IMG/VR virus record: IMGVR_UViG_3300039216_000106
Span: 1 to 64,000 of that record
DNA: 64,000 nucleotides
Direction: 5' to 3' (one strand)
Source: a virus
In this document: positions 2 through 63,603 of the stretch, piece by piece
How positions within the stretch are numbered: position 1 is the stretch's first letter
Layout: each line of letters opens with the position of its first letter
Notes under the pieces: generated by a model
Told to the model about the DNA's origin: nothing
The model's database searches: none
What the model saw: the letters and a program-made list of their open reading frames with translations, nothing else
Made by a program: the position numbers and the translations under genes

Positions 2-535
2 ATTCCGCAGAACATCGCCGTGCTGGTTGATGGCCACTTTGCCAAATACGCAGTGCAGATCGGCGACACCCTGAATTCGATTGCGACTGCAGTCGCCGCC
101 GCCGTCAATGCGTTCGAGCCCGCTTATGCCGTTGGTCCCGTCGTTCATATCGACGGCGCGCGCGAGCTTTCGGCGCGGGTCGGCGGGGCCGGGGTCAGTT
201 TCAAGGAAGTGATGCGGATCGAGCGCCGGTTTCAGGTCACGTTCTGGTGCCCGACTCCAGCGTTACGAACGGCTGCGGCGAAAGCGGCGACGTTGTATCT
301 CGCTCAACAGAATTTCCTCACCCTTGCCGATGGCATGGGATCACGATTGATCACGGTGGGCGAGCACGAAAGCGATGAACAGCAAAAGCCGCTACTCTAT
401 CGCCGCGACGTGATCTATTCCGTCGAATATCCTGTAACGGATGAGGAAACCGATACACAAATCACGGTTGGCGTTGTAAGTATGTCGGGCGGAATAGATC
501 CGTCTGCGCCGCCGATTGTAACGCAGCCGATGTGA
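2..535 (+). CDS. virion structural protein, 5' end cut by window edge (neck / tail-completion region)
   Basis: Frame is open from base 2 with no stop before the GTG at 20. It lies directly upstream of the sheath gene and carries a YAVQIGDTLNSIATAV signature shared with other virion proteins here. Confidence 0.55.
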   Translation: MPQNIAVLVDGHFAKYAVQIGDTLNSIATAVAAAVNAFEPAYAVGPVVHIDGARELSARVGGAGVSFKEVMRIERRFQVTFWCPTPALRTAAAKAATLYLAQQNFLTLADGMGSRLITVGEHESDEQQKPLLYRRDVIYSVEYPVTDEETDTQITVGVVSMSGGIDPSAPPIVTQPM

Positions 536-545
536 GGTAAGAGCC

Positions 546-785
546 ATGGCATACAATTTGGTCGTGAACGAGCCGTTTGTCATCAAGAACGCGACCGGGG
601 ATAAGGTGCGTTACGACAAGGGGCAGATCGTGGATGACGCGGCGCAGGTTGACGCCATTCTGGCATCGCCGCAGGCTCACCACGTCGTCAAGATCAACGC
701 GCCGGACCCGGTGGTCATTCCTGCCTCGCCCATCACCGTGCCGTCGCCCCGTGCCAAAACTCCTGACGTTGGAGAAAAATCGTGA
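546..785 (+). CDS. hypothetical small protein in tail module
   Basis: 79-aa ORF with an ATG start. Its stop overlaps the sheath GTG start (GTGA), suggesting translational coupling. Confidence 0.45.
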   Translation: MAYNLVVNEPFVIKNATGDKVRYDKGQIVDDAAQVDAILASPQAHHVVKINAPDPVVIPASPITVPSPRAKTPDVGEKS

Positions 786-2641
786 CCCAGATCATCGCCG
801 CAAATTCCCCGACGCCTGTCGTCCCGGACGCCTATATCGCCATCGTTCCGCCGCAGAACCAGTTGATCGCGGGCGCCGCTTACGGGCGCCTCGGCATCGT
901 CGGCACTGCAACGTGGGGTCCAGTTGGCGTTCCCGTAATCATCGGCGGCAACGATCAGCAATTGGCGTCGTTCGGCATCATCCAAAACCGCGAATACGAT
1001 TTGGGCACCGCCGTCGCCGTATCCATTCAGCAAGGCGCGTCCGACATGCGCTGCGTCCGCGCCACGGACGGCACCGATACCGCGGCCACGGCCACGATTG
1101 CGGCCAGCACCGCGATTGAAACCGCGACCATCGGCGGCACGATCACGGCGGCGGACAAGGTCCAGTTGATCTTTACCCCGACCTACGGCGCGGCCATCAC
1201 CGTTTCCTATACCGTGATCGGCACGGACACGACCACCAGCACCGCGACCGCACTTCTCGCCCTGCTCCAAGCCAATGTGGCCCTGACCACGGCCGGTTTC
1301 ACCTTCACGTCGAGTGGCGCCGTCATCACAATGAACGGGCCTGCTATGGGCTGGACCTACAACAAGAACGTCACCGGTGCGGCCACAGAAACGGTCACGC
1401 TGGCTTCCGGCACCGCATCGCCGACGCAATTGACGGTGACGGCCAAGTACACCGGCTCCGCGGGCAACGGCTTGACCATCGCCATTTCAGCCGGCAGCAA
1501 GGCCAGCACATTCAAGGCGACGGTTTCCATTCCGAACCTCGGCATTCCGGCTGAGATTTACGACAACATCGCCGGTCCCGGCAATCTGTTCTGGACCGGT
1601 TTTGCCAGCGCCATAAACAGCGGAATTTCCGGGCTTCGTGGCCCGTCGCAGATCGTCACGGCCACGGCTGGCGTATCGAGTGCGACGCCAACGGTTGCCA
1701 CCACGACGCTTTCGGGCGGTGCTGACGGCGTGTCCGGCGTCGCCACCCAGCAATTGGTCGGTGTTGATACCGCGCCGCGCAAGGGCATGTACGCGCTTCG
1801 TGGCCAGCAATGCCAGATCGTCAATCTTACCGACGCCTGGGACGATACTTATTGGTCCGCGATGTCTGCCTTTGCCGACAGCGAGGCGTGCATCGTCGGC
1901 ACGTCAACGCCAATCGGCGACACCATCTCCGCCGCGGTCGCCGCGCTTTCGAGCGAGGGTGTGGACGATTACAACTTCAAGCTCCTGCTCGGCGATTGGG
2001 TCTATTGGCAGGATCAGGTCAATGGCGTTACCCGCCTCTTAGCCCCGGCCACGTTCTGGGCCGGGCTCCGCGCCGCGACGCCGCCGCAGAATTCGACGCT
2101 GAACCGAGCGGTTCAGGCCGTGGTCGGGACGCAAAAAAGCACGTCGGGCGCCAGCTACTCGACCGCGGACATTGCGGCGCTGGTTCAGGGCCGCGTCGAT
2201 GTCATCTGCAACCCGGTTCCGGGCGGATCCTACTTCGGGCCTCGGATCGGGCGTAACAGTTCGTCCAACGGCGCGACCCGCGGCGAGAATTACACGATGC
2301 TGACCAACTTCATTGTGGCCAGTCTGAAACCGGTGGTCGGCAAGGTCGTGGGTCAGTTGCAGAACCCGACCCAGCGGCGCCAAGCCAAGTCCATGCTGGA
2401 CGATTTCTTCTCCGGCCTCGCGTCGGAAGGTGTGATCGGCACGGCGGACGGAAGCCAGCCATGGCAGGTCACGCTGAACTCGACCAACAACCCGCCTTCG
2501 CAGGTCGCGGCCGGTATCGAAACCATCGCAATCAAGGTCATCTACCAGAGCGTGATCGAATTCCTGATCGTCAATCTGGAAGGCGGCCAGACCGTCACCA
2601 TCGAAAGCAGCGGCGCGCAGCTTCTGTCCAACGCGGCTTGA
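782..2641 (+). CDS. contractile tail sheath protein with an inserted extra domain
   Basis: 619 aa. The N-terminal GIVGTATWGPVGVPVIIGG..QLASFG and C-terminal VICNPVPGG..GPRIGRN regions match the sheath family from memory. It is followed by tube, chaperone and tape measure genes. Confidence 0.8.
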   Translation: MTQIIAANSPTPVVPDAYIAIVPPQNQLIAGAAYGRLGIVGTATWGPVGVPVIIGGNDQQLASFGIIQNREYDLGTAVAVSIQQGASDMRCVRATDGTDTAATATIAASTAIETATIGGTITAADKVQLIFTPTYGAAITVSYTVIGTDTTTSTATALLALLQANVALTTAGFTFTSSGAVITMNGPAMGWTYNKNVTGAATETVTLASGTASPTQLTVTAKYTGSAGNGLTIAISAGSKASTFKATVSIPNLGIPAEIYDNIAGPGNLFWTGFASAINSGISGLRGPSQIVTATAGVSSATPTVATTTLSGGADGVSGVATQQLVGVDTAPRKGMYALRGQQCQIVNLTDAWDDTYWSAMSAFADSEACIVGTSTPIGDTISAAVAALSSEGVDDYNFKLLLGDWVYWQDQVNGVTRLLAPATFWAGLRAATPPQNSTLNRAVQAVVGTQKSTSGASYSTADIAALVQGRVDVICNPVPGGSYFGPRIGRNSSSNGATRGENYTMLTNFIVASLKPVVGKVVGQLQNPTQRRQAKSMLDDFFSGLASEGVIGTADGSQPWQVTLNSTNNPPSQVAAGIETIAIKVIYQSVIEFLIVNLEGGQTVTIESSGAQLLSNAA

Positions 2642-7334: not shown

Positions 7335-8454
7335 CAATCCGTCGCCGCAATCGCAAGTCCGTTTTCCCTACGCCCGCGTTTTGCTGAACGGCAAGCCGGT
7401 GCAGAACTGGGAAACCGCGATGGTGACCAAGAACGCGCACTACGTTTCCGATAATTGGTCGGTCGAACTCCCGATGAATGGCTTGGTCGCGCCCTTCGAC
7501 GCCGCCTATTTCGGAACGCAAACCGACTTGCAGATGGAAATCCAGGCCGGGTTCAAGAATGCGGATGGCACGCTCGGGTCGCCGACTTCGCTGATCATCG
7601 GTGTAGTCGATGAAATTGACGAAGATTTCCTGCGTGAAGACGGCAGTCAGATGATCGTGATGCGCGGGCGAGATTACACCGGCGCCTTGATCGATTCCAT
7701 CGTCACGTTCACGTACAAAAACATGACCTCAAGCCAAGTCGCGGCCAAGATCGCCGCAAACCATCCCGAACTGAAACCGAAGATCACGGCGACACACAAG
7801 AAGGTCGGTTCGTATTTCAACAACGAAACGAACCTGGAAAGCCGGAAGATTTCGGAATGGGATTTGCTGACGCAACTGGCACAGGACGAAGGTTTTGTCA
7901 TCCTGATCCGTGGCACTCAGCTTTACTTTGGACAGCCGGAAAAGCCAAACGAGACGAACCCGTACATCTTCAAATATGTGCCGCGCGATGCTGGGCAAGT
8001 GCTCCAATCGAACGTGTTGACCCTGAAATGCACGCGCGCCCTAACCGTCGCGCGGGACGTGAAAGTCGTGGTGCAAAGCTTCAGCCGCGCCACAGGAAAG
8101 AAGGCAAAGGCAGAGGCCAGCGCCCTCAACCCGCTTCGCAACAACAGAACCGGCAACAAGGCGGGGACACAGATTTATTCGTATAACATTCCGAACAAGA
8201 CGCACGCCCAATGCCAAGATTTGGCAACTGCCTATCTCAAGCAGATCACAAAGCGGGAACGCGTCATCGAAATTTCCGCTCCCGGCGATCCGCTGCTCAC
8301 TGACGATACTGTTATGAGCCTGACGGGGACAAATACGGCGTGGGACCAGTTTTATTTTGCAGACAGGATCGAGCACGAACTGAACGCCAACAGCGGATGG
8401 CTTATGCGGGTCAGGGCCAAGAACCATTCCACCAGTTCAACGCTTCCGACGTGA
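7324..8454 (+). CDS. late-control D / baseplate hub family tail protein
   Basis: About 376 aa from the ATG at 7324 (an upstream GTG at 7315 is possible). Size, position and the ..MTSSQVAAKIAANHPELKP.. segment resemble the P2 gpD family. Confidence 0.65.
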   Translation: MAVNNPSPQSQVRFPYARVLLNGKPVQNWETAMVTKNAHYVSDNWSVELPMNGLVAPFDAAYFGTQTDLQMEIQAGFKNADGTLGSPTSLIIGVVDEIDEDFLREDGSQMIVMRGRDYTGALIDSIVTFTYKNMTSSQVAAKIAANHPELKPKITATHKKVGSYFNNETNLESRKISEWDLLTQLAQDEGFVILIRGTQLYFGQPEKPNETNPYIFKYVPRDAGQVLQSNVLTLKCTRALTVARDVKVVVQSFSRATGKKAKAEASALNPLRNNRTGNKAGTQIYSYNIPNKTHAQCQDLATAYLKQITKRERVIEISAPGDPLLTDDTVMSLTGTNTAWDQFYFADRIEHELNANSGWLMRVRAKNHSTSSTLPT

Positions 8455-8922
8455 AAGACGTGCTTTGTCCGCTTTTTTCAACTTCTCTTTTTTCATCATA
8501 GCTTCGGCACCGCGGACTGCTTTGGCAATAACGTCCGCCCTTAAAAGCTGTGGTGGTATAACGGTAGTCACCGCCTGTGGTTTGGTCTTGCCGTGCTTTG
8601 CTTTAAGCGCACGATAGCGCTTTTCCCAGCGTGCTGCCGACAATTTGGCGCGCAGAATGATCGCCAGCAATTTCTTGTACGCCTTGATGTAGTGCAGTTT
8701 CTTGTCGCCGATGCGAGATGCGTTATAGATCACATCAACAAACTCTTCGTCTGTTTGTCTCTTGGCCTTTGGCGCAACTGGTGCTTTTGGTTTGGGGCGC
8801 ATGAGTTCAATATCTCCCTCTCTCAATGGTTCTACCCTGACGAGAAACTGCTTGTCGCCACGCATAATGTAGGCAAATTCTGCCGGCTTGCTCGGGTTTT
8901 GTTCGGTCACAACACGCACCAC
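8437..8922 (-). CDS. hypothetical Lys/Arg-rich protein (antisense moron, gene 2)
   Basis: 161-aa ORF on the opposite strand inside the tail operon. GC is lower by eye and its 3' end overlaps the gpD-like stop by 18 nt. GTG start at 8922, or alternatively ATG at 8865. Confidence 0.5.
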   Translation of the reverse strand: MVRVVTEQNPSKPAEFAYIMRGDKQFLVRVEPLREGDIELMRPKPKAPVAPKAKRQTDEEFVDVIYNASRIGDKKLHYIKAYKKLLAIILRAKLSAARWEKRYRALKAKHGKTKPQAVTTVIPPQLLRADVIAKAVRGAEAMMKKEKLKKADKARLSRRKR

Positions 8923-9497
8923 AGAATGATTACCAAGTTGACGACCGTTAAAGCGCTTCCGATGAGAGTGAGGCGTTTTGCCATACGTATTCTTCTGTCG
9001 TCATTGGTCGGTTTGACCGATTGGGTGTGGCTGTGTTGTAGCTGCCTTTCCTCAATTTTACTTATTCTTTGCTCGAAGTACGATTCCGCACCGAAAAGAG
9101 TTTTTTTCATCCGTTCAAAAACCTCGTTCTGATTTGCAGGGTTGCTTTTCGCTTCCTGCGTGGCCTTGGCGAACGCGGACGAAATCCATCTCTCCATGTC
9201 GCACATTTTCGTGTAGATCATGTTTTCGACCGGGGATGGCTTGCGATCTTCCTGGGGCTCTTCCGGCGCCATTGGCAATCGCTCAAGTTCCGAACGTGCC
9301 GTCCGCTTATCATTCTTGTTGGGCAGCGGAATGACGTGTTTTCTGACGCGACCGTTTTGCCACGTCGTGATGATGCGCGCCGCTGGGTCGGCCTCCGTTT
9401 GCCGAATGACGCAAATCTCTTTGATTTGCGCGTCACCGATGGCTTGACCAAATCGGATGTGTGTCGTCAGGAAGTCTTGGAGTTTCACGCCTGTCAT
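8907..9497 (-). CDS. hypothetical tail-anchored membrane protein (antisense moron, gene 1)
   Basis: 196 aa with an ATG start and a single C-terminal hydrophobic helix (LTLIGSALTVVNLVIILWCVL). No family recognised. Confidence 0.55.
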   Translation of the reverse strand: MTGVKLQDFLTTHIRFGQAIGDAQIKEICVIRQTEADPAARIITTWQNGRVRKHVIPLPNKNDKRTARSELERLPMAPEEPQEDRKPSPVENMIYTKMCDMERWISSAFAKATQEAKSNPANQNEVFERMKKTLFGAESYFEQRISKIEERQLQHSHTQSVKPTNDDRRIRMAKRLTLIGSALTVVNLVIILWCVL

Positions 9498-11874: not shown

Positions 11875-12551
11875 GCACGGGCGACACCAATGACATCCTG
11901 GCACGGCTCCAAACCCTGATACCGCAGGCTTGGTTTGAAAGCGCGCCGCCGATCTTGCAAGGCGTGCTCACCGGTAGCGCCGCGATCGACGCCAATATCT
12001 ACGCGCTGGTCGCTTATGCCAAGCTACAGACCCGCATTAGAACCGCAACAGGCGGCTGGCTGGATCTGATCGCGCTCGATTTCTACGGCAACGCACTGCC
12101 GCGCCAGACTGGCGAAAGCGATACGAACTACCGCACCCGCATCTTGGCCGGGCTGTTCTCGAAAGCCAACACCCGCGCCGTGATTTCGGCAGCGCTTGCC
12201 GATCTTCTCGGTTCTGTCCCGGTCATCATAGAATCGTGGTCCTTACTGGATACGGGTATGTGGGACGGCACCACGGGACAAGTATTTAGCTTCTGGGGTG
12301 TGAACCGACCATCCAACCCGTTCGTCTGGACAAATCCCGGAAGCTTTTTCGTTAAGATCACGCTACCGACCGGATCGCCCTACACAAACGAGCAACTGGC
12401 AGAACTCGCGACTTCGATTGTGGCGCGGCTCAAGGTGTGTGGTATCACCGCCTTTATGCAGGTAATATCCGGCACGGAAATAGGCGGTCCATTTAGCTGG
12501 GACGTGACATCGCAACACTGGGATAGCACTTTGACTTGGGACGCGCACTGA
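11871..12551 (+). CDS. baseplate / tail protein (gpI or Mu gp48-like position)
   Basis: 226 aa with an ATGA overlap on the J-like gene. The position matches P2 gpI / Mu gp48; sequence evidence is weak. Confidence 0.5.
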   Translation: MSTGDTNDILARLQTLIPQAWFESAPPILQGVLTGSAAIDANIYALVAYAKLQTRIRTATGGWLDLIALDFYGNALPRQTGESDTNYRTRILAGLFSKANTRAVISAALADLLGSVPVIIESWSLLDTGMWDGTTGQVFSFWGVNRPSNPFVWTNPGSFFVKITLPTGSPYTNEQLAELATSIVARLKVCGITAFMQVISGTEIGGPFSWDVTSQHWDSTLTWDAH

Positions 12552-14188
12552 TGACCGACAGGCCCATAGTTTACACTGGCGAACAGGCCCGCGACTACGA
12601 TTTCCTCAGCTTGGCGCGCGACACGCTGATCGGGCTTGGCCTGATGACCAACGACTTTTTGGGCACGGGCGCAACCGTTGTGTTTGGCCTCGCCGCGACG
12701 CCGGACGCGCCGGCCGATCTCAAAGTGAACATCGCGGCCGGCCGCATCTACAAGGTGACCCAGGTTGACGCTACGCAATACGGCGTATTGGGCCAAGATA
12801 CCGACCTGATCGATCAACAAGGCATCGCAGCGGCGCAGCAATTGACGCTGACCACGGCGGGGCTTTCGTCTGGCCAGTCGCAATGGGTTCTGATCCAGGC
12901 CACATTCACGCAATCCGACAACGTGCCCAGCGACGATCCCGAAGGCGGCATCCTCAATTTCTGGAACGTTGACAACGCGAACGTGCCGCTGCTCGGGCCG
13001 GGTGGAACCGGAACGGCACTCCCGACACGGCGCAGCGCAGTTTGTACGCTTCAAGCCGTCTACGGCGTTGCCGCCACGACCGGCGCCGAGGTGCCGCCGT
13101 CGCCGACCTCCGGCTATGTCCCGCTCTACCTGATCGATCTTGCCTACGGCCAGACCCAAATCACGGCACCGGAAATTGTTGTCGCTGGACCCTCTGTCGG
13201 CACCAATGTGCCGTCGAACTATCCCGCCGCGCCGTTCCTGGCCGGGCTCTTGGCATCGCATCATGGCGGCGTGCCGGGGCAGGCTCCACAGATCAATCTC
13301 GCGTCTGAGGTGCAAGGATTACTTCCGTTCTCGTATTTGCCGTTGCTTTCTGCGATGCCTTCTGGTCAAGGCATTTTGCCGTTCGTAAATCTTCCGAGCA
13401 TCAGTTCTTACCTCGATTATGCTGGGAATACCGCTGGCGATATTCCATATCGCGCATCTGGTGGCTGGACCGTTCTGGCGCCTGCGGCGGATGGAACTGT
13501 ACTGCAGCTCAGCGGCGGCGTTCCGATATGGGGCAGTAGCGCTCCAAACGCAAACAAGCTGACTACGGCAAGAACCATTGGCATCTCTGGCGACCTGACA
13601 TGGTCTGTCAGTTTCGACGGTTCAGGAAATGTCAGCGCCACAGGCACGTTGGCCACCGTCAACTCATCGCCTGGCGCCACTGGTGACGCCACTCACGTCT
13701 CTGCTGTTACCACAAACGCCAAAGGGCTGGTGACCAGCAACACATCCGTTGCCATCCAGTCTGGCACCGTTTCTCAGCTTGGTCTCGTTCAACTCGTAAG
13801 CACTTCGGTTGATACCACTCTTGCCGACGCCACGAAGGCGTTAACCGCGGCCGCCCTCGGGACGCTAATGCCGAGGACGGCAAACAGCATTGTTCTTCCC
13901 GGTAACATAAAATTTCAGTTCGGGTTGAAACCCGTTACGGTGGCTGGTGAAGCGTTTGGTTCTGATACTGTCACACTGCCTAGTTCTTTCGCGACTTCTA
14001 CATATTTTGTTTCTGCCACGACGGACACCAACGCCGGAGGGAATCCAGCAAATTCAGGTGGCAACTACACCGCAATCGTTTACGGAAAATCCGCGAGTGG
14101 ATTTTCGATCAGAATCGATAACGAAAGCGGTGCCAGCGAGAGCCGAACTATCTTCGTGAACTGGATTGCAATCGGGATTGGGCCGTAA
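12551..14188 (+). CDS. tail fibre protein
   Basis: About 545 aa from the ATG at 12551 (the ORF opens at a TTG at 12536). It is Gly/Ser/Thr/Ala rich and lies downstream of the baseplate genes. Confidence 0.65.
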   Translation: MTDRPIVYTGEQARDYDFLSLARDTLIGLGLMTNDFLGTGATVVFGLAATPDAPADLKVNIAAGRIYKVTQVDATQYGVLGQDTDLIDQQGIAAAQQLTLTTAGLSSGQSQWVLIQATFTQSDNVPSDDPEGGILNFWNVDNANVPLLGPGGTGTALPTRRSAVCTLQAVYGVAATTGAEVPPSPTSGYVPLYLIDLAYGQTQITAPEIVVAGPSVGTNVPSNYPAAPFLAGLLASHHGGVPGQAPQINLASEVQGLLPFSYLPLLSAMPSGQGILPFVNLPSISSYLDYAGNTAGDIPYRASGGWTVLAPAADGTVLQLSGGVPIWGSSAPNANKLTTARTIGISGDLTWSVSFDGSGNVSATGTLATVNSSPGATGDATHVSAVTTNAKGLVTSNTSVAIQSGTVSQLGLVQLVSTSVDTTLADATKALTAAALGTLMPRTANSIVLPGNIKFQFGLKPVTVAGEAFGSDTVTLPSSFATSTYFVSATTDTNAGGNPANSGGNYTAIVYGKSASGFSIRIDNESGASESRTIFVNWIAIGIGP

Positions 14189-44325: not shown

Positions 44326-44715
44326 ATGACCAACCACCCGAACAGAAAGAAGACCGCGGCCCCGCTGCACTGGCGGCAGGGCGACGTACTGCTTGTCGCC
44401 ACGGATCGGATTCCGGCCGACGCCGCGCCGGTCGGACGCGACGAACACAACCGCTTGGTCCTCGCCAACGGCGAAGTCACCGGCCACGCCCACGTCTTCC
44501 GCGGCAAGGGCATCTGCGGTTTCACCAAACTCGACAACAAGGACATCGAATACCTTCTGGTCGAGACCGGTGGCGGTTCCGGCGCCACGCTCAAGCACGA
44601 GTTGGTCAGCGGCGCCAAGGCCGACCATGATCCGCAGCAAATTCCGGACGGCAAATATCTGCTTGGCCAGCAGGTCGAGTATACGCCGGCAGAACTTATC
44701 CGTGCGAGCGACTAA
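44326..44715 (+). CDS. hypothetical beta-rich protein (GEVTGHAH motif)
   Basis: 129 aa from the ATG at 44326, ending 1 nt before the repeat-protein start. Confidence 0.45.
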   Translation: MTNHPNRKKTAAPLHWRQGDVLLVATDRIPADAAPVGRDEHNRLVLANGEVTGHAHVFRGKGICGFTKLDNKDIEYLLVETGGGSGATLKHELVSGAKADHDPQQIPDGKYLLGQQVEYTPAELIRASD

Positions 44716-44716
44716 C

Positions 44717-46009
44717 ATGGCACAAAAACTCGAACTCACAGACGAGCGAAAAGCCATCATCACTGCTTCGCTCGAAGAGTGGATGGCAGCTGGACTGTCC
44801 ACTGCGCCGGCTGATTTTGGTGCGGCAGAGGAAGCCATTGCCGTCCTCTATAGCCACATCGGCCGTAAGCGGCCCCATTTTGTTCGGCTCAGTTCTCCGC
44901 TCGGTGCAGAACTTTACATAAACTTGCTTTGTCAAACTTGGCCCAAGGTTGATTTGAAGTCGCTCAGGGACCAGCTCAGGGACCAGCTCGGGGGCCAGCT
45001 CTGGGACCAGCTCGGGGACCAGCTCGGGGACCAGCTCGGGGACCAGCTCGGGGGCCAGCTCGGGGACCAGCTCGGGGGCCAGCTCAGGGACCAGCTCGGG
45101 GACCAGCTCTGGGACCAGCTCGGGGGCCAGCTCGGGGACCAGCTCTGGGACCAGCTCGGGGGCCAGCTCGGGGGCCAGCTCAGGGACCAGCTCGGGGACC
45201 AGCTCTGGGACCAGCTCGGGGGCCAGCTCGGGGACCAGCTCTGGGACCAGCTCAGGGACCAGCTCGGGGGCCAGCTCAGGGACCAGCTCAGGGACCAGAA
45301 ACTGAACTATATGGGAACGTGGTTCTGGGGCCAATGGGATTATTTATGGGCATGGCTGGATGGTGGTCGCCGGATTGGCGCTCATTACGATGACAAGCAG
45401 AACGCCATGCTTGATGCACACTGCACACTAGTCAAATCGTGCGGCTGGTTTTATCCGTTCGATGATTTCTGCATCATCACGGATCGACCGGAAATTATCG
45501 CGCGTGATGATCGTGGGAGGCCGCACTCTGACAATGGCCCTGCACTACGTTATCGTGACGGCTACAGTCTGTACGCGTCACATGGCGTGCGGGTCCCGAC
45601 CGATCTTGGCGTTGACCACTCCAAGATCACGGTAGCGCGGATCGACGCGGAACAGAATGCCGAGGTCCGTCGAGTTTTGATCGGCTGGTTCGGCATGGAC
45701 CGGTATTTGCGGGAATCTGGCGCTACGGTTGTGCATGAGGACTTTGACGCGCTGGGCAATCCGCGGCGCCTGTTCCGGCGTGAACAGCCGGACGACGAAG
45801 CGATTGTCGCCGTTGAGGTGACGGATTCGACACCGGTTCCGGATGGTGAGGCCAGAAAGTATGTGATGCGCGTTGATCCGACCAAGTATGACGGCCGCGC
45901 TGGCCGGGAGTGCCACGCTGCGATTGCATCGACGTGGCGGCGCAAGGATGATCTGTCCAAGATGATGTTTGCACGACCCGAGGATTATGCACCGGTAGGC
46001 GAGACGTGA
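44717..46009 (+). CDS. tetrapeptide-repeat protein: N-terminal helical region, 28 x L-x-[D/G]-Q repeats, W-rich C-terminal globular domain
   Basis: 430 aa from the ATG at 44717. The repeat block LRDQLRDQLGGQLWDQLGDQ... is followed by GTWFWGQWDYLWAWLDGG...DNGPALRYRDGYSLYASHGVRVP. Confidence 0.65.
   Translation: MAQKLELTDERKAIITASLEEWMAAGLSTAPADFGAAEEAIAVLYSHIGRKRPHFVRLSSPLGAELYINLLCQTWPKVDLKSLRDQLRDQLGGQLWDQLGDQLGDQLGDQLGGQLGDQLGGQLRDQLGDQLWDQLGGQLGDQLWDQLGGQLGGQLRDQLGDQLWDQLGGQLGDQLWDQLRDQLGGQLRDQLRDQKLNYMGTWFWGQWDYLWAWLDGGRRIGAHYDDKQNAMLDAHCTLVKSCGWFYPFDDFCIITDRPEIIARDDRGRPHSDNGPALRYRDGYSLYASHGVRVPTDLGVDHSKITVARIDAEQNAEVRRVLIGWFGMDRYLRESGATVVHEDFDALGNPRRLFRREQPDDEAIVAVEVTDSTPVPDGEARKYVMRVDPTKYDGRAGRECHAAIASTWRRKDDLSKMMFARPEDYAPVGET
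44963..45298 (+). repeat. 28 tandem copies of a 12-bp unit CTC-NGG-GRC-CAG, in frame
   Basis: Counted directly: 336 nt equals 28 x 12. Units 11-18 and 19-26 show a higher-order 8-unit (96-bp) pattern. Confidence 0.95.
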
Positions 46010-49524: not shown

Positions 49525-49944
49525 ATGCGTGACACCATCATCCGCCGCATCCGCCTCCCCCAGCCCAAGATGGGCGGCAAGATGTTCCTTATCCAGGAGC
49601 CTGGGCTTTACGTATTCGAGGAAGGCCCGGCGACGCTTATCACGCTGGCCGTAACGCACGCCGGGTCAGGGACCATCCTTGGTTACGACGGCGTGCCGGA
49701 CGAAAACGGGCGGTTCCCGGACGAGGAAATGCAGGAATGGATGCCGGACGGCAGCCGCAACCCGGACTACGACACCCGCAACGGCCGGGCGATCTACCGC
49801 GCCACACCTGCAGTAATGGGCTCTTGGATGGCGTCAGGCGGCTGTTTTCACGGTCTGGTCATCCATGCGGACGGCGGCGGCCATTCGGTCTGCCCGTTCG
49901 CCACTGTAGTCTGGAACGCATACAAGGCGAGGGAGAAGACATGA
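49525..49944 (+). CDS. hypothetical protein
   Basis: 139 aa from the ATG at 49525. It may be a distant paralogue of the 52290-52643 product. Confidence 0.4.
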   Translation: MRDTIIRRIRLPQPKMGGKMFLIQEPGLYVFEEGPATLITLAVTHAGSGTILGYDGVPDENGRFPDEEMQEWMPDGSRNPDYDTRNGRAIYRATPAVMGSWMASGGCFHGLVIHADGGGHSVCPFATVVWNAYKAREKT

Positions 49945-50834
49945 GCAAGTCGATTTGCATCTATCACGGCGGCTGCGATGACGGGTTTGCCGCGGCATGG
50001 GCGCTCCGCACATCAATGGTGCCTGACACATTCGAGTTTCACCCCGGCGTCTACGGTAACGCTCCTCCTGACGTTTCTGATCGGCACGTTGTTCTTGTCG
50101 ATTTCAGCTACAAGCGCCCAATTCTGACCGAAATGGCGAAGGCAGCAAAGTCAATTCTCATTCTCGACCACCACAAGACGGCGGCCGAAGACCTCGCCGG
50201 AATGCCGCACCCCGGCACCCGCGACGAATGGTGTTTCAGTAAGGCGCCGGACGGCGTCGCGGCGATCTTCGATATGACCCGAAGCGGCTCCGGTATCGCG
50301 TGGGATTTCTTTCACCCGTATCAGGCGCGCCCTGCGTTCATCAATTATGTCGAGGACCGCGACCTTTGGCGCAAGGCGCTTCCGAACGGCGACGAATTTA
50401 CCATCGCTCTGCGGTCACATCCACAAGACTTTGAGACGTGGGACAGGCTTGTCGCCGCAGGCCCAGCGCCCCTGATCGAAGAAGGCCGCGCAATTCAGCG
50501 CTATTATCGGCTTCGCGTCGAGGAACTGAAGCAAAGCTCCTATCTCGCAAAGATTGCTTGGGGCCATGACACCAGAGACCTTACGCGGTCCACCATCGCC
50601 ATCGCGAACGCGCCATATTTTGCGGCGAGTGAGGTTGCGGGCGAACTATGCGCCGTCGATGGTGCCGAGTTTGGGGCAAGCTATTTCGAGGTACGGCCTG
50701 GACAATGGCAATATTCGCTACGATCCCGTGGTGATTTCGATGTTTCGGCGGTCGCCAAGTGCTTCGGTGGCGGCGGGCACAAGAACGCAAGCGGTTTCAC
50801 CATGCCATGGCCCGTTCACGAGAAATTGCCGTGA
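49941..50834 (+). CDS. DHH/DHHA1-family phosphoesterase
   Basis: IYHGGCDDG (motif I region), VLVDFS, ILDHHKT (DHH) and the C-terminal GGGHKNASGF (DHHA1 GGGH). ATGA overlap. Confidence 0.7.
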   Translation: MSKSICIYHGGCDDGFAAAWALRTSMVPDTFEFHPGVYGNAPPDVSDRHVVLVDFSYKRPILTEMAKAAKSILILDHHKTAAEDLAGMPHPGTRDEWCFSKAPDGVAAIFDMTRSGSGIAWDFFHPYQARPAFINYVEDRDLWRKALPNGDEFTIALRSHPQDFETWDRLVAAGPAPLIEEGRAIQRYYRLRVEELKQSSYLAKIAWGHDTRDLTRSTIAIANAPYFAASEVAGELCAVDGAEFGASYFEVRPGQWQYSLRSRGDFDVSAVAKCFGGGGHKNASGFTMPWPVHEKLP

Positions 50835-52947: not shown

Positions 52948-53652
52948 ATGCGCAATCTCGTAGATTACCAATCCGCGCCGTACAATGGGCCGTTTTCCAT
53001 CAGTGCGGCGCTGCTCACCGGGGTTGCTGCGGCGCCCTACGAGGGCCTTTGGGTTCCGATCCAATGGGCCAAGTCCGGAAGCATCGAGTTGAGCGGCACG
53101 TTCAGCGCCATCGATGTTGACCTCTATGTCAGCAACGCGGAACAGGCGCCGGCCAACCAGTATGTTGCGACGTTGGGCGGTTCTGCAACTGAGGCGGATC
53201 ACGTCGGCATCACATTTACGTCTCCGCTCATTTCGGGCGGCAAGACGGTAAGCTACACCGTGGCGAACGGAAACGACTTGACCGCGATCGGCGCTGGCCT
53301 CGCCGCCGCAATCAACGCGGACACCACATTGGCTGCGCTCGGCATCACGGCTGGAGCCGCGTCTGGCGTCGTCACCGTCTCATGGCCCAGCACGTCACCG
53401 ACCGAAGGCGCAGGGCAGTTCTCGTCGCCATCGTCGCCGTCCCAAGCCAACGACCTCAGCCTCGCCTCAGCGCTTTCCGCAGGCGCCACAGAGACGATCA
53501 CATTCACGACCGGCACCAGTGGGCTCAAACTCGGTTCGACCATAAGCGCCGCCGGTCTGACCTCAATCGCCACATCGTATCGCTGGATCAAGGCTCGCCT
53601 CACCAGCATGACCGGGTCATCCGCCGTCGCCAACTACGCCGGGGTCGCGTAA
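52948..53652 (+). CDS. virion protein carrying one copy of the dispersed repeat module
   Basis: 234 aa. ATLGGSATEADHVGITFTSPL..KTVSYTVANGNDLTAIGAGLAAAINADTTLAALGITAGAASGVVTVSWP. Confidence 0.5.
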   Translation: MRNLVDYQSAPYNGPFSISAALLTGVAAAPYEGLWVPIQWAKSGSIELSGTFSAIDVDLYVSNAEQAPANQYVATLGGSATEADHVGITFTSPLISGGKTVSYTVANGNDLTAIGAGLAAAINADTTLAALGITAGAASGVVTVSWPSTSPTEGAGQFSSPSSPSQANDLSLASALSAGATETITFTTGTSGLKLGSTISAAGLTSIATSYRWIKARLTSMTGSSAVANYAGVA

Positions 53653-53737
53653 CCGCGCTTTTCTAATTCCGAGGACACCATGCGTAAATTCCTGATCGCA
53701 CTTCTCGCCGCTAAAGCATCCATTGGAGTTGCATAAC

Positions 53738-56700
53738 ATGGCTGTCTATTTCACGCGAGTGGCGACCCTTTCCGACCTTGCAGCAAAAAATGCAGCCCAA
53801 TGTTCAAGCGTTGGCGGTTTTATCTGCGATGAAACAGGCCATTCATACGAGTGGGAATCAACATCTACAAAAGCGGCCGCGTCGGCTTCTTTTCCACAAG
53901 GCGTTTGTCCGACAGTCATCATCCCGGTGGGTAACCCTGCATCCGGCCGGTTGGAAATTATACTTGCAGATTCCGACGTTGCTGCAGTTCAGGTGATAGC
54001 AACAACCGGTCGCGTTCCAGATCTTGCAAAAGTTGCGTCGGTATCGACCACAAATATCACCTTATCCGGCGAGCACACCATCAATGGATTCACAACAAGC
54101 GCATCTCGCGTCTTGCTGATTGCACAGACCACACAAAGCCAAAACCGTGTTTGGATAACCGGGTCGGGCGCATGGACCACCGCGACAGACGCGGATAGCG
54201 CTGCGGAACTCGGGCTTGCTACCGTCGAAGTTGATGCGACTACATCAACGCTTGCAGGTCAGCGGTATCAATGCCCACTCACCGCCGCGCAGATAACGGC
54301 CGGTGGTGGTGTCGGCACGGTAGCAATCCCCCCATGGGTCAACATTGGAACAAACGCAGCGGCTGCCGCTGTCGCCGCCGAGGCTGCTGCCCGCTCTGCC
54401 GCGGATGATATTTTACGCGGGGAGTCTATAACGGGCGGCGTGACTGCTCCGGGTGCAGGTTATGGTGGGTGGGGCCCTGGTGCAACCGTATTTTGTAGCC
54501 AACCCTTCACTGCAACGGGTCTGCTTCAGACATTAAATTTTTATTTAGATTACGCAGGTCCAGTGGTACTGACTTTAGTTGAACTGAACGACGCAGGTAC
54601 CTCTATCGTGCAACTGGGAGATACTCTTACCCTCCCAAATGCAGTTGGCGGACTCAATACTGTGACGACATGGAATCCTGTCGTCACTCAAGGGTGGTAT
54701 GTAGCGGTTCAAAACGTCTATCACAATGTCAGATACGATAATCAGGCAGGATCATACCTGATTAGCACAAGTCAGGCAATAACGATAGCTAGTACACTCT
54801 CTAATGTTGGAGGGGTTATTTCTGAAATTGGTTGGAAGATTATTACAGGAATTGCTGCTGAGGCCACTATACGTAGTACAAATGATGCTGCTGAAGTCGT
54901 AGCGCGCAACGCGGCCATCGCTGTTGAGACTGGAAATCGTGAAGATGCAATCAATGCTGAGGCTGCGGCTCGCCAAGCACTTGCAGGCGCGGTGCTTTCT
55001 GGCGGAGAACTCAACCCAACCGCAGCCTATGGCGCTTGGACTCTTGGGAACACCGTATTTTGCAAAGATCCCTTTGCGGCCACTGGACCAATTAAATCAA
55101 TCCCAATATATATGCCTGCGGCAGGGTGCATTGAACTTGCACTGGTAAAATTAATTGCTGCAAATACGTTTACGTCTGCGATCTGGACGTCAGGTGTTCT
55201 TACGCTAACTACCGCCGCCGCACATGGAGTGCCGTCAGGTTCTGACGTAACAATCTCGGGGCTAACTAGCTCAAATAGTGTGACGGTGAACGGGACGTTT
55301 GCGACGGCCTCTGGGACTACAGGATCGACTATCAATATCCCCATTTCTGCCGATCCTGGAACGGTGGGGTATTCTTCTGGCGCGCTCGCTGCGGGGATGG
55401 TTGTTGGAGAGACTTACGAATACACCGCCGCGGCTGGTACATCGGTCATCACCACATGGCATCCAGTCGCCGCGCCGGGGTGGTATTTGACAGCCTATGC
55501 GGAGGGGGGAAACCATATTCGGTATGCTAATACTGTCGGTCAGAACAGCTATGCAATGCTGGGGCGTCCTGGTGAATTGTCTGGTGCAGTTGTAGACTAC
55601 AGCGGTATTGTTTTTCAATTCGGCTGGACGATGACCTGTGGTCTAGTGGGGGAAACCATAGCCAGTGGAGGAGCGGCGGAGGCACTATCCGCAGCAATTC
55701 TAGATCAATCAACAAGCACCCCAACCACAGTCTCGGCCGCGACAGCACTGGGAATTAAAAAAGCATTTCTTGTTACTGGCTATAGTGACGCCGACGCTAC
55801 GGCGGCGGTCAATAACACGATTATTCCAGACACCACTCCTGACTACATTTCGGCCATACAGTTTGTGCAGCCTGCTTGGGCTGATCGTAACGGCAATAGC
55901 GGTTATGCACAAAGCAATGAGTTTTCCGGAACTGGTGGGGCGCCCGTCCTAACCACCCAGCCGTACTACAACAAAATGCCGGACTCGACGTATGCGGACT
56001 TTGTAGCAAACCCAGGGCCGGATGTGAATCACATCCGCTATGAAATAACCGATACAGGTACAATTACCGGTGAACGGCCACTACTGATTGGCGGTGACGC
56101 AGTAATAAACGTTGTGCCTGAGACTACTTTTTGTGAGTCGTCAAACTACGCGGTAGAGTGGGCCTCCGACAATTGGGGTGTTAATCCTGCGAAAAACATC
56201 GTCTACGCTTTTTGTGGTGGACGTGGTGGAGAGCCACTCAACCACTTCATCAAAGGTACCGATCCATATACAGTATTTATGGACTTCTTTGCGCAGTCAC
56301 AAACCTATTTCCATTCTCAAAATCTGAGCTACAACGTCCAAACGATACCCTATATCGGACACGAGAACATTGATACCGCTGCCACGCCTGATGCCTATTC
56401 TTGGGCGGAGATGTTTAAGAAGTTAGCGCACGATAGATCGGGAGATATTGCAAATCTCACCGGACAGCAAACTCCGGCCTACACTCTCGGCGTACCGACT
56501 TGCGTCGGAGTTTTGCAGGGGCAGGCACAGCAGGGCATGTTGAAGGCTTGTCTGGAAGACTCGATTTGCTGCTACGTTACACCTGATTACGACATAGTGA
56601 GAAACACGGTAGACGCTACGCACTATATTCGCTCAGGGGCTCTCTACTTAGGAGCAAAAATTGGTCGGGCTCGCGCTCAGATAATGGGTTCTCCAACTTA

Positions 56701-57522: not shown

Positions 57523-58158
57523 ATGTCGTCACCCGGATCAGAACCGGTAACGCCTCCGAACCCAGCACCGACACCAGCCGCACCCGTAACGCCGCCCACT
57601 CCGACGCCAGCTACGCCGGTAGAGCCGCATGAGACGCCGGAACAGGCTCGGTCTCGGCTCAACGCTGAGGCCGCTGCATACCGCATTCAGGCCAAGGATG
57701 CGCGGGAATTGGCGAGGGACGCAGAAGCCAAACTGGCGGCGCTGAAAACCTCCGCCGAAACAGACAAGCAATCAGCCATTGCGGCGGAAAGGTCAAAAGT
57801 GGACGCGTTGAAACCTCGGATCATCGAAGCGGAACTCAAGGCGGCGCTGGTCGGCGAAGGCGTGCTCGATCCCGAACTGGTTGGCCTTGTCGGCCGCGAC
57901 GGCATTACGGTGGACGAAAACGGAGCGGTTACCGGTGTGACAGAGGCTGTGGCGAAGTTCAAGGCGGCGAAGCCCAATTTCTTCCGCGCGCCCGCGGCGC
58001 CCGCACCGGCCCCAGTTCCGGCCCCAACATCCAGCGGCAACCCGTCAGCCCCGCCGGCCAATCCCAATCCGAGCCCGACGAACGTCAAAGACATGTCGGC
58101 GTCTCAGTACCGAGATTACAAGTCCGGCATTCGGCGCCGGTTGCGTGGCGGGCGGTAA
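57523..58158 (+). CDS. capsid scaffolding protein
   Basis: 211 aa with Pro-rich ends and a long central coiled coil (RSRLNAEAAAYRIQAKDARELARDAEAKLAALK). It lies upstream of the major capsid gene. Confidence 0.65.
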   Translation: MSSPGSEPVTPPNPAPTPAAPVTPPTPTPATPVEPHETPEQARSRLNAEAAAYRIQAKDARELARDAEAKLAALKTSAETDKQSAIAAERSKVDALKPRIIEAELKAALVGEGVLDPELVGLVGRDGITVDENGAVTGVTEAVAKFKAAKPNFFRAPAAPAPAPVPAPTSSGNPSAPPANPNPSPTNVKDMSASQYRDYKSGIRRRLRGGR

Positions 58159-58190
58159 TGCATTGAGTTAGGCGCAAGCCGGAGGTGGTG

Positions 58191-58853: not shown

Positions 58854-60227
58854 ATGGCCAACTGGACCGGCTTCCCGGCCGCGCTCGCCGCCGAACTTCA
58901 GACCGGATTATTGGAACGCGAATTCGAAGAGGGTTTGGATTCCATCCTCGGCTACCGCCGCGAAGCGATGCAGGAGACCATTCCGGCCCGCATCGGTGAA
59001 TCGATCACCCGCACCCGTACCGGCCGCAAGGCGCCGGTCACCACACCGATGAACGCACAGTCCTCGTCCTCGCTGGACAACGGCTTGAGCGCGTCGGACG
59101 CGGCTCTTGAGCAATATACACTCGCGACCTACGAATACGGCGACGCCACCGACGTGAACCTCATGCAGGATCTGGCGTCGATCGCGAACAACATGACCCG
59201 CGTGGCCCGCAACAACGGTGTGCAGTCGGCGCAGTCCTTGGAGCGCTTGGCCCGCTCGGCATTCTTCAGCGCGTATCTGGGCGGCAACACTCGTGTCCGC
59301 GTTGACCTTGGCGCACCTGGCACCACGAGCTGCTACGTCGATGACATTCGTGGCTTTCAGACCGTCCTGGTCAACGGAAGGCCGACGCCGGTCGGTTCTG
59401 GCACGAACATCACAGTGCAGGAAATCCAGGCGTCATCCTCCGGTGTAACCCAGACCCTGACCGTGACTTCCGTGGTTGCGGAAGGAACCAACCACTCCAA
59501 GACGCCAGACGGCATTTCCGGCACGCTCACGTTCTCGGCCGCCACCACGCCGGTCAACGGCGATGCCTTGGTTGCTTCGAACGCGCCGCAAGTGTTGCGC
59601 CCGATGGGGCGTTTGTCCACCGCGTCTCTTCAGGGCGGCGATGTGATGACCCTCGGCATTTTGCAGGACGCCACCACGATCCTGAAAAACAACAGCGTTC
59701 CGCCCACCGACGACGGCAGCTATCACGTCATCCTCGACAACACGTCGATGCGCCAGTTGTTCGCCGATCAGGACTTCAAGGTGCTCTACGCCGGTCGCTA
59801 TCAGTCGAAGGAATGGGAGACAGGCGATATCGTCCGCCTGCTCGATATGACCTTCATTCCGACGACGGAAGCCTATGTGCAGACCGCATCCACGACCACG
59901 GCAAACGGCGCCACCGACAAGATTGGTGTCACGGTTCGCCGCCCGCTCGTGATCGGCGCCGAAGCGCTGATCGAAGGCGACTTTGAGGGCTTGGACACTT
60001 GGCTGGAACGTTCGGGCATGAACAACATTTCCGACGTGTTCCTGGTCGACAACATCGCGCACATCGTCCGGCCGCCTCTCGACCGCCTCGCGCAGTGGGC
60101 ATCATTCGCCTGGACTTTCATTGGTGGCTACGCCGCACCTTCAGATTTGACCGCCACCACCAGCATCATTCCTACTGCCAGTAGTGCGCTCTACAAGCGT
60201 TGTACGGTGATCGAGCACGCAGGTTAA
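58854..60227 (+). CDS. major capsid protein, N4-gp56-like family
   Basis: 457 aa. The N-terminus LAAELQTGLLEREFEEGLDSILGYRREAMQETIPARIGESITRTRTG resembles the N4-gp56 MCP family from memory. Confidence 0.75.
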   Translation: MANWTGFPAALAAELQTGLLEREFEEGLDSILGYRREAMQETIPARIGESITRTRTGRKAPVTTPMNAQSSSSLDNGLSASDAALEQYTLATYEYGDATDVNLMQDLASIANNMTRVARNNGVQSAQSLERLARSAFFSAYLGGNTRVRVDLGAPGTTSCYVDDIRGFQTVLVNGRPTPVGSGTNITVQEIQASSSGVTQTLTVTSVVAEGTNHSKTPDGISGTLTFSAATTPVNGDALVASNAPQVLRPMGRLSTASLQGGDVMTLGILQDATTILKNNSVPPTDDGSYHVILDNTSMRQLFADQDFKVLYAGRYQSKEWETGDIVRLLDMTFIPTTEAYVQTASTTTANGATDKIGVTVRRPLVIGAEALIEGDFEGLDTWLERSGMNNISDVFLVDNIAHIVRPPLDRLAQWASFAWTFIGGYAAPSDLTATTSIIPTASSALYKRCTVIEHAG

Positions 60228-60232
60228 TTCGT

Positions 60233-60373: not shown

Positions 60374-60385
60374 AAGGGCAAAATT

Positions 60386-60804: not shown

Positions 60805-60807
60805 GCC

Positions 60808-62391
60808 ATGGTGAATATTCCGCTTTCCGGCACGCCCGGCTCGTTCGATCCGCGCAACCCGACGCTGGTCCCGAACTTCGACCGCCCCGGCAATAGCGGG
60901 TACGGCACATTGGACCATATCTCACCAGCTCAATTCCTGATCAACAACCCGCGCACCGATGCGAGCGCGGTAGTGACGATCGGTGAAACCGTTACGACCG
61001 GCGATGTCAGCACGTTGCGTGTCGCGCACGGCCTGTTCACCGGTGGTTACCTCGAAAAGTCGCATACATCGATCGGCGGCGATACCGTTTCCACCATCGC
61101 CGATGCGCTCCAAACCGCGTTCAACGCCGATGCACAGGCGAAAGCCGTTGGCCTTGTGGTCAGCGCCGCCGCGGGCGTCTTGACCTTCGCATGGCCTTCC
61201 GCGCTCGGCAACATGGCCATTCTGTCCGGCTGGGCCGAAGCCGCGGCCGAAACCATCACGATTGGCGGCACCGCGACCGCAACCGATACGCTCAACGTCC
61301 GCTTTGCGGGTGGTGCGCTTTCCACTCCCGTCATTGTCGCCGCAACGGTGACTGGCGGCGAAAGCACGACCGACATGGCGACGGGCGTCAAGAACGCGAT
61401 CAACGCCAGCGCAACCCTCACCGCGGCTGGGATCACTGCCACGTCGTCAGGTGCCGTTGTGACCCTGGTCACGACGCCGGATTCCGGCGCAAACACGGTT
61501 CTGGCCTGGGCCAATGGTCCAGCCGAAACCGGCACCGTCGCCAACATGACGGCGACCGAAACGGCGACGATTGGCACGGGTAGCGCTCCGGCCGCGCTTG
61601 ACACTGTCGCGCTGACCTTCACCAATTCTGGTGTGACCGGCCTTCCCGTCACCAAGACCTACACCGTGATCGGCGGCGATACCGTCAACACGATTGCGGC
61701 CGGGCTCAACGCGCTGATCAACGCCGACGCGGTTCTGGCCGCAGGGTTCATCACGTCCACGGTTTCCAACGCGGTTCTGACCTTCCACCAGCCGCAGGCC
61801 GTTGGCAACTCGACTGTCGTGACCCGTACCGTTACAGAGACGGGCGGCGGATCTGAAACCGTCACGTTTGGCAACGCGGGAAGCCTCGCTGGTGGCGTCG
61901 GTGCCGTGGGCAACACCGTCGCGCTCACCGTCACAAACTCGCTTTTGACCGGTAGCCCGATCACGAAGACGTACACCGTGGTCGCTGGCAATGACGCCAC
62001 CGCCGTTGCGGCAGGGCTCAAGGCCCTTGTCAATGCCGACACCGTACTGGCCGCCGCAGGTTATGCCGCCACCAATTCTGCGAACGTGCTGTCCGTGACC
62101 AATCCGGCCGTGGCTGGCCCCACCGCGTATTCGCGGACTTCGGCCGTCATCACGTTCACGCTGGCCGGTGACCCGACCGAGACGCTGACCATTGCCGCGG
62201 GCGAGACCGAGACGTTTACGCTCAACCCGCTCACCGGCATCTTTGCCGGCGGCGACGGCCCGGTTATCCCGTACAACAACTTCAGCTATGTCTGGCACAG
62301 CGCGACCATGAATTTCTGGATCGGCCAGCCCGTCATCGTGCCTTACGACCTCCTGGCCGCACTGGTCGCCGATGGAGAACCAATCGTATGA
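60808..62391 (+). CDS. virion (decoration-like) protein with four tandem ~100-aa repeat modules
   Basis: 527 aa directly downstream of the capsid gene. Module cores lie at aa 86-128, 178-222, 284-327 and 388-432. Confidence 0.6.
   Translation: MVNIPLSGTPGSFDPRNPTLVPNFDRPGNSGYGTLDHISPAQFLINNPRTDASAVVTIGETVTTGDVSTLRVAHGLFTGGYLEKSHTSIGGDTVSTIADALQTAFNADAQAKAVGLVVSAAAGVLTFAWPSALGNMAILSGWAEAAAETITIGGTATATDTLNVRFAGGALSTPVIVAATVTGGESTTDMATGVKNAINASATLTAAGITATSSGAVVTLVTTPDSGANTVLAWANGPAETGTVANMTATETATIGTGSAPAALDTVALTFTNSGVTGLPVTKTYTVIGGDTVNTIAAGLNALINADAVLAAGFITSTVSNAVLTFHQPQAVGNSTVVTRTVTETGGGSETVTFGNAGSLAGGVGAVGNTVALTVTNSLLTGSPITKTYTVVAGNDATAVAAGLKALVNADTVLAAAGYAATNSANVLSVTNPAVAGPTAYSRTSAVITFTLAGDPTETLTIAAGETETFTLNPLTGIFAGGDGPVIPYNNFSYVWHSATMNFWIGQPVIVPYDLLAALVADGEPIV
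60970..62218 (+). repeat. four tandem ~300-nt coding repeats (protein-level module array)
   Basis: Recurrent T(I/F)GG..A...D.V.L.F......P(V/I)TKTYTV..GD(T)...IAAGL.ALINAD.VLAA.G...T....VLT. The copies are diverged at nucleotide level. Confidence 0.7.
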
Positions 62392-62766: not shown

Positions 62767-63603
62767 GTGCTCACCGAAGCCACAAAAGCGAATGTTCGTA
62801 GGCATTTGCAATTTCCCGCCATCGGGTTGCTGAGGGTATCGGCTGGCGGTCAAACGCTGGGCAGCGCTGCGGCTGGCTATCGGTTTTTCGAAGTATTCGG
62901 ACAGTTGGAATGGCGGCTGAACAATTTGGCCGGCAATGAAGAGGCCATGCTGACCGGCGCGAGTTATGGTTCCGTGATCCTGGTCGGGCCTCAACCGGCG
63001 CAGGGCGATACGGTTTCGATCACGGTTTCTGGCGGCTTGATCCCGAGCCCGGTTACAGTCACCGCGACGGCCCCGGCCCCATCGGTTGACGCATCTGGCC
63101 AGCCCACTGACACCCGCATCAACCTCGTGAACGGCTTGGCCGCGGGCATCGCCGCAAATGCCGTGCTTCAATCCCTTGGCGTCTACAGCGCGGCGCCATA
63201 CGGCACCGGCCCCTATTCGCAGAACGCCGCGGCCGTGCCGGAAATCAGCATCGTGTCACCGTTCGATTTTGCCATTTCGGCCACGGGCTCTGGCGTTCTG
63301 AAGCCCCAGGTCACGGCCAACGGGGTGAAACTGCCGCCGAGCGCGAGCCTGGACGGCGGAACGACCACGCTTTACGGGTATCTCGGAATTCTCGACGGGC
63401 TTGAAAGTGCGTTCGCCGGATCGAGCGACAATTTAGATACTAAACGGGCAGCCGTTTGGGAACATCATTCCCAGGAACTTGCCATGAGGCAAAGTTTGTA
63501 TCAATCCTGGGTTTCTCGCCTTTCCGACTTTCTGAACATCCCTGTCAATCCGCGCCGCACCGGCACGCCCGCAACCCACCTTGGCGTCATGAGGTTTTCA
63601 TGA
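62767..63603 (+). CDS. virion protein with one degenerate copy of the repeat module
   Basis: 278 aa with a GTG start. GDTVSITVSGGLIPSPVTVTATA...INLVNGLAAGIAANAVLQSLGV. Confidence 0.5.
   Translation: MLTEATKANVRRHLQFPAIGLLRVSAGGQTLGSAAAGYRFFEVFGQLEWRLNNLAGNEEAMLTGASYGSVILVGPQPAQGDTVSITVSGGLIPSPVTVTATAPAPSVDASGQPTDTRINLVNGLAAGIAANAVLQSLGVYSAAPYGTGPYSQNAAAVPEISIVSPFDFAISATGSGVLKPQVTANGVKLPPSASLDGGTTTLYGYLGILDGLESAFAGSSDNLDTKRAAVWEHHSQELAMRQSLYQSWVSRLSDFLNIPVNPRRTGTPATHLGVMRFS

Follow-up and report, generated by a model that had tools for sequence, protein, structure and literature searches.

The tail sheath gene of this phage carries an inserted module of about 107 residues, nested in the outer domain that the sheath already has, within its first hairpin, and related copies of the module are encoded in other genes of the virion region. 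The window analysed here is the whole 64,000-nucleotide stretch of the virus record IMGVR_UViG_3300039216_000106 in IMG/VR (positions 1 to 64,000).

The tail sheath and its inserted module

The open reading frame at 782..2641 on the forward strand encodes a contractile tail sheath of 619 aa, as an earlier note on this DNA had proposed, and the profile match, the fold and the neighbouring genes agree on this assignment. It matched the PHROG 23 'tail sheath' profile over residues 17-604 (E 2e-39), and the Pfam family Gp18_domIII_N gave a sub-threshold match (20.5 bits against a cut-off of 27). The AlphaFold2 model, computed from a 112-sequence alignment, had a mean pLDDT of 89.8 and a pTM of 0.83. 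Comparison of this model with the PDB by Foldseek gave 89 matches at E<=1e-3, and the 50 that were listed were sheath subunits of phage tails and of other contractile injection systems. The top match was the solved sheath of H. borinquense (E 2e-22), T4 gp18 was matched at E 4e-21, and the sheaths of phiCD508, P1, DSY3957 and pyocin R2 were also found. A sequence search of the PDB with the whole sheath gave no match. Directly after the sheath lies a 145-aa gene, the probable tube gene, which is followed by chaperone-sized ORFs, a 655-aa tape-measure-like ORF, and baseplate hub and wedge genes. The same order of sheath, tube, tape measure and baseplate genes was found in loci L003-L007.

The earlier note had placed an insert of about 100 aa at nt 1094-1427, which corresponds to sheath residues 105-216, between sheath segments that are normally adjacent. 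The alignments bore this out. The sheath of Ralstonia phage Hyacinthe is 50% identical to the product of 782..2641, and alignment with the sheaths of Hyacinthe and Komagataeibacter phage phiKX1 showed a single large gap of about 110 residues, falling exactly between ..TDGTDTAATATI and LTVTAKYTGSAGN.. in the sheath. Among the best 112 homologues, 76 had 10-20 residues at this site, and the other 36 had an insert of 105-115 residues. The insert of the window, here termed type A, was delimited by predicted secondary structure to residues 108-214 (1103..1423, forward strand; HMM E 4e-37). It is flanked by two predicted strands of the host protein. The strand before the insertion, residues 100-107 (1079..1102, forward strand), carries the motif TDGTD.AA, which was kept in all homologues. 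The strand after it, residues 215-224 (1424..1453, forward strand), carries the conserved motif YTGS.GN and opens the ordinary outer domain of the sheath. This outer domain consists of residues 100-107 and 215-310, and the module lies inside it as a fourth domain.

In the AlphaFold2 model, the insert was composed of three strands, two helices (residues 151-164 and 166-170) and four strands, and its pLDDT was about 95. When the module was predicted alone, from a 35-sequence module alignment, the pLDDT was 82.9 and the pTM 0.76. The alignments and these models show residues 108-214 to be a clean domain insertion that folds autonomously. The hhalign comparison of the module with the sheath's own outer domain or with the core gave a probability below 1%, showing no relation, so the module is neither an ordinary sheath domain nor a recent internal duplication, and a nested duplication of the outer domain was rejected on the same value. 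An intein or mobile element was also dismissed, as the insert stays in frame across no fewer than 29 diverged orthologues and its beta/alpha fold is predicted well.

Module copies in the virion block

The earlier note had also reported that the module pattern recurs in four other genes. The gene at 60808..62391 (forward strand), which comes after the capsid gene, encodes a 527-aa protein made of four tandem modules and short unique ends. The HMM located the copies at nt 60955-61263, 61237-61563, 61543-61881 and 61891-62214 (E 1e-22 to 4e-26). An orthologue with 70% identity occupies the same position in locus L004, and phage Hyacinthe has no equivalent of this gene. The product is a candidate head decoration or fibre protein. 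The gene at 52948..53652 (forward strand) encodes a 234-aa protein with one module at nt 53149-53478 (HMM E 7e-24); the scaffold and capsid genes lie downstream of it, and it also has an orthologue in L004. Judged by gene position, both products would be part of the virion.

The similarity of these copies to the sheath insert was examined by composition-corrected BLASTP, in which the sheath segment matched the product of 60808..62391 four times (best E 5e-11) and that of 52948..53652 once (E 4e-6). The recurrence was then tested in a non-circular way, using an HMM built from sheath inserts alone. This HMM detected the four copies in 60808..62391 with 42-54 bits each (domain E 1e-12 to 8e-16) and the copy in 52948..53652 with 47 bits (E 9e-14), whereas the best of 300 composition-preserving shuffles per protein reached at most 7.5 bits. 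The similarity is therefore not compositional, despite the 24% Thr of the window module. The sheath segment might still be thought to hold no extra domain at all, being either the ordinary outer domain or an artefact of Thr/Ala/Gly-rich composition; its composition is indeed strongly biased, and the HMMER bias terms of the module matches were high. However, the segment is missing from more than half of the homologues, has a fold of its own and is unrelated to the outer domain by hhalign, and the real copies stand far above the shuffles and are retained under composition-corrected BLAST, which makes this reading scarcely credible.

Two further proteins contain remote relatives of the module. 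The gene at 62767..63603 (forward strand) encodes a 278-aa protein of the virion region, which consists of a family of about 130 aa and an insertion of about 140 aa (residues 63-204, nt 62953-63378); in BLAST, matches to the ~130-aa orthologues were confined to residues 2-62 and 205-262. Versions of about 275 aa were found only in the window, L004, L009 and L048. The hhalign comparison of this insertion with the module gave a probability of 93% (E 3e-7, 62 columns). The gene at 2..535 (forward strand) encodes the C-terminal 177 aa of a conserved protein of about 285 aa (PHROG 13532, E 3e-39), whose family lies just upstream of the sheath gene in 70 of the 88 loci. Because the window start cuts its module-like domain, 2..535 alone matched over about 31 residues, a remnant at nt 44-136 that covers the helix only. 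Full-length orthologues (residues 97-158) aligned with the module at 96% (hhalign, E 2e-9). Other weak matches, to proteins of about 280 aa, were orthologues of 2..535; the module-like domain is intrinsic to this family and is present also in phages with an insert-free sheath. The HMM alone gave weak values for both genes (E 1e-3 to 1e-5). The recurrence reported by the note was thus upheld, strongly for 60808..62391 and 52948..53652 and, through significant profile-profile similarity, at the level of remote relatives for 62767..63603 and 2..535. The note had called all four proteins head-side. By gene position this holds for the first two, but the latter two fall in the interval from the head genes to the sheath gene. 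In locus L007, the orthologue of 2..535 (8006-9193, 395 aa) has an extra, strong N-terminal module, which clustered with the sheath modules on the module tree.

The major capsid protein gene of the window is at 58854..60227 (forward strand; PHROG 1357 'major head protein', E 1e-24) and the scaffold gene at 57523..58158. In L004, a close relative, the gene order is scaffold, capsid, two small ORFs, a 523-aa protein, a Zn-ribbon ORF, proteins of 274, 221, 285 and 69 aa, and the sheath. Since this order runs from scaffold and capsid to the sheath, the window represents a circularly permuted genome, about 64.7 kb in size, in which the sheath gene is directly preceded by the genes found at 60.8-63.6 kb and by the one at 2..535. 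The virion block runs off the right end of the window (57523-64000) and resumes at the left end (1-535); the missing stretch of ~720 nt, with its immediate surroundings, takes in the ~221-aa gene and the initial ~108 codons of the ORF at 2..535. Between the gene at 52948 and the scaffold gene, a 1,189-aa protein is encoded at 53723-57292, with PHROG matches to tail fiber at its C-terminus and to 'virion structural protein' at its N-terminus. Visual inspection suggests that part of it is duplicated internally, with two segments of the form ...AAEAAAR...YG.W..G.TVFC..PF.ATG..., and its counterpart is absent from the equivalent position in L004. A Cys-rich ORF of 125 aa (62388-62765) lies within the virion block between the four-module gene and the gene at 62767; it showed a weak PHROG match to HNH endonuclease, and its L004 orthologue a faint Zn-ribbon match. 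No portal gene in the window could be named from Pfam or PHROG matches, and the window contains no tRNA genes. Outside this block, a DHH/DHHA1-type phosphoesterase and a DUF6745 protein are encoded at 49941-50834 and 44393-46009.

An exchangeable slot in the sheath hairpin

The insert site was compared among the 112 closest sheath homologues, of which 29 carried a type A insert and seven carried a different cassette, type B. The type B cassette is about 115 aa long (GTVTFTGQPTA.Q.I.I.GT..FVASGATGNQV.IG..) and occupies the same sheath hairpin in P0019, P0024, P0035, P0040, P0057, P0085 and P0090 and in loci L005, L008, L010 and L024; a Labrys prophage provides one example. A kinship between types A and B was unsupported (hhalign 5%). 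A third cassette, type C, of about 80-90 aa (GGSGYAVGDTITLTGG...GSGATFNL), was observed at the same site in L011 (8400-10187), L015, L016, L017 and L064. Sequence resembling type C also forms an insert of about 160 aa at a second site, after PEVFDNISGG, in sheaths of about 670 aa (P0018, P0045, P0048 and P0078).

The sheath of P0008 contained two tandem type A modules. On an approximate neighbour-joining tree of the sheath core, the state of the insert changed at least eight times, and type A appeared in at least four clades. The data showed that the sheath hairpin is an exchangeable cassette slot, in which at least three unrelated cassettes have been repeatedly gained or lost.

On the module tree, the sheath modules grouped together and apart from the 60808 and 52948 modules of the same phage. 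Recent intragenomic copying from the head-side proteins was rejected on this basis, and the grouping indicates that the sheath copy of the window is old relative to this phage. In comparison with the closest orthologue, the module was 67% identical and the core 89%, so that the module diverges faster. Strong modules in other ORFs of the virion region were found in 5 of the 9 loci with a type A sheath but in none of the 74 insert-free loci (Fisher p 4e-6; 88 loci with flanks of varying length). Lineages that decorate the sheath tend to decorate other virion proteins too.

Fold, proposed role and known systems

The module belongs to a family of extracellular repeat domains that is widespread and unnamed. 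When it and the proteins carrying it were scanned with Pfam, NCBIfam and PHROG, no named family was returned. When 1.84 billion cluster representatives were searched with the module profile, 1,307 proteins scored at E<=1e-3, of which 609 reached E<=1e-10. Many of these carriers had 8-16 tandem copies, the largest being 5,570 aa long, and RHS repeats were present in most of the nine carriers that were scanned. One protein of metagenomic/NCBI origin, P0146 (995 aa), is a flagellar hook protein, FlgE, in which six modules in tandem separate the conserved, rod-like N- and C-terminal domains. The tandem arrays in RHS proteins and the six copies in FlgE suggest a role not tied to any single lattice. 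In a tblastn search of 50,697 cultured phage records with the module, the four-copy protein and a consensus-like relative, no match was obtained, to which the low-complexity filter may have contributed. Among the GTDB representative genomes, the only relatives were insert-free Pseudomonas prophage sheaths, which gave no clue to the host.

The centre of the module, YTV..GDT...IA.aLaa.iNA, resembles the start of LysM (motif YxVxxGDTxxxIA). The module profile matched the LysM proteins Ecp6 (E 2.5e-4) and YkuD (E 0.04), and the profile of the 285-aa family matched LytE (E 5e-3). In multi-copy relatives, partial matches to Pfam LysM (PF01476) accumulated, mostly at profile positions 1-13 to 1-19 and in one entry at 1-37, and no single stretch in these relatives passed the Pfam gathering threshold over the ~43-residue profile. 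The window's own copies showed no LysM match even at E<=10. The module model contained the strand-helix-helix-strand order of LysM (E33-38, H45-58, H60-64, E68-72); unlike LysM, it has seven further strands, and LysM structures were absent from the Foldseek matches to the module. The LysM likeness is taken as a sequence-based lead and not as membership.

A Foldseek search of the PDB with the module-only model matched the sheaths of phiTE, A-1(L), Milano and 7-7-1 (TM 0.58-0.66, Milano 0.66; E 5e-3 to 3e-2, with the extension domain presumed to be the aligned part) and flagellin outer domains, namely those of P. aeruginosa FliC (4nx9) and Vibrio FlaA/B/D. The E values of these PDB matches were modest (5e-3 to 0.1) and their probability was about 1. 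In a library of viral models, uncharacterised phage proteins were matched at TM 0.72-0.80 (best E 2.7e-5), together with nozzle, sheath and fibre proteins.

These matches raise the possibility that the module acts as a mechanical brace, contacting neighbouring modules or the body domain of the next subunit and so stabilising the extended sheath or tuning its contraction. In its favour, sheath extension domains and flagellin outer domains head the structural matches, and the module is also found inside the flagellar hook protein, another helical polymer. The extension domain of Milano is bonded by an inter-subunit disulfide to the body domain of its neighbour (PMC10811340), and the outer domains of flagellin reportedly form dimers and change how the filament behaves (PMC8931119). 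However, the lattices of capsid-side, neck-region, RHS and sheath proteins differ, so that one conserved contact is unlikely; types A, B and C replace each other at one site, most relatives have no insert, and the window module has no cysteines. We regard a bracing function as the main rival to the adhesion proposed below, possible but rather unlikely.

The explanation that we favour, and to which we give an even chance of being right, is that the nested module is displayed outward as part of a common virion coat with weak, multivalent adhesion to polysaccharide, and that it is non-essential. By analogy with solved sheaths, each sheath subunit would display one module, and its orientation is probably outward because it sits in a hairpin of a domain that is external in those structures. 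A rule-of-thumb estimate from the 655-aa tape measure would put about 150 modules on the tail, which together with the head and neck copies could form a common outer coat. The module may bind host-associated polysaccharide of the envelope or matrix, weakly and multivalently, and thereby increase the encounter rate, as has been suggested for the Ig-like domains of other phages; the module itself would be dispensable and the slot would accept exchangeable cassettes. Adhesion independent of a lattice is favoured by the presence of the family on unrelated assemblies, by the substitution of unrelated cassettes and by the LysM-like motif. The likeness of its fold to external sheath extension domains and flagellin outer domains, its faster divergence and its co-occurrence with modules in other virion genes also speak for the favoured explanation. 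No conserved ligand-binding residues were evident in the module, in which the conserved positions resemble core and turn residues.

The same module might instead be a passive shield or variable cover, masking the conserved surface of the sheath against attack by proteases or antibodies and against host surface defences, or serving as a substrate for glycosylation. Its Thr content and few charged residues would suit such a cover, as would its faster divergence relative to the core and the swapping of cassettes at one site. A non-systematic look revealed no glycosyltransferase or comparable linked gene, and present data do not separate a shield from adhesion; we consider it quite improbable. A bolder form of the adhesion explanation is that the module, with its LysM-like core, is a mobile glycan-adhesion cassette, installed coordinately on capsid-side, neck-region and sheath proteins and used by bacteria on hooks and RHS toxins, with the hairpin slot serving to retarget adhesion. 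This is a doubtful proposal, somewhat less probable in our judgement than the brace. If it were true, the whole particle would be sticky, the contractile sheath included.

External additions to sheath proteins have been described before. In Milano gp20, residues 91-203 form a 'sheath extension domain' that interrupts the body domain and lies on the outside (PMC10811340), the phiTE sheath has an external D3 (PMC11972413), and a survey of 112 modelled sheaths found additional domains away from the tube, with proposed roles in stability or adsorption (Evseev et al. 2022; PMC9230969). The Milano domain, which corresponds to phiTE D3 and to the type 2/3 'additional domains', resembles the present module in its size of about 110 residues and in its position after the N-terminal part of the body domain. 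The Milano domain is external, as the module would be; both differ from phage to phage, neither is needed by the core, and the folds may be similar, to judge by the Foldseek values above. Like an extension domain, the module is an insertion in the N-terminal half of the body/outer region, after residue 107, that is absent from minimal sheaths (76/112 relatives). Unlike the Milano domain, it is nested in a pre-existing outer domain, has no detectable sequence kinship to that domain or to Milano, and belongs to a repeat family that is used in other proteins.

In T4 gp18, domain I is inserted in domain II, which in turn is inserted in domain III. T4 gp18, one of the best structural matches to the whole sheath, thus shares the principle of a domain within a domain, with outward layers on a conserved core. 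However, its inserted fold is different and shows no sequence kinship, and its domains are fixed in the lineage, whereas the module is patchy among close relatives.

Promiscuous Ig-like accessory domains (Hoc, Big_2, I-set) on phage virions were reportedly described by Fraser et al. in 2006. Such domains are non-essential and surface exposed, and weak carbohydrate binding has been proposed for them. As with the module, the same small unit recurs on structural proteins of several kinds (head decoration, tail and fibre). In contrast to the all-beta Ig sandwich, the module has a two-helix core, and the scan for Ig families in Pfam gave no match for it, only Big_9 at E 9.6. Flagellin and hook outer domains, too, are hypervariable insertions carried by the subunits of a helical polymer and exposed on its surface, as the module would be, but they belong to another polymer and machine, and the sequence link to FliC was insignificant (E 0.46).

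Accessory outer sheath domains, nested insertion and promiscuous decoration domains were thus already established. New here are the unnamed module family and its nesting in the sheath's own outer domain, the role of one hairpin as an insertion hot spot that has received no fewer than three unrelated cassettes, and the coordinated presence of the module in several virion genes of one uncultured lineage. For the roles of extra outer sheath domains, the slot offers a tractable system, with natural variants that are empty, single, tandem or filled by three unrelated cassettes. If the module binds surface glycans, adherent decoration would extend from Ig-like head domains to a new fold along a contractile tail. 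The insertion slot also marks a permissive site for engineered display on sheaths.

A second domain with matches on both sides of the virion was observed in a tail-fibre-like protein of 550 aa encoded at 12536-14188. Its residues 335-410 matched a 'head decoration protein' family (PHROG 3018) and several tail-fibre PHROGs, and may represent another domain shared between head and tail.
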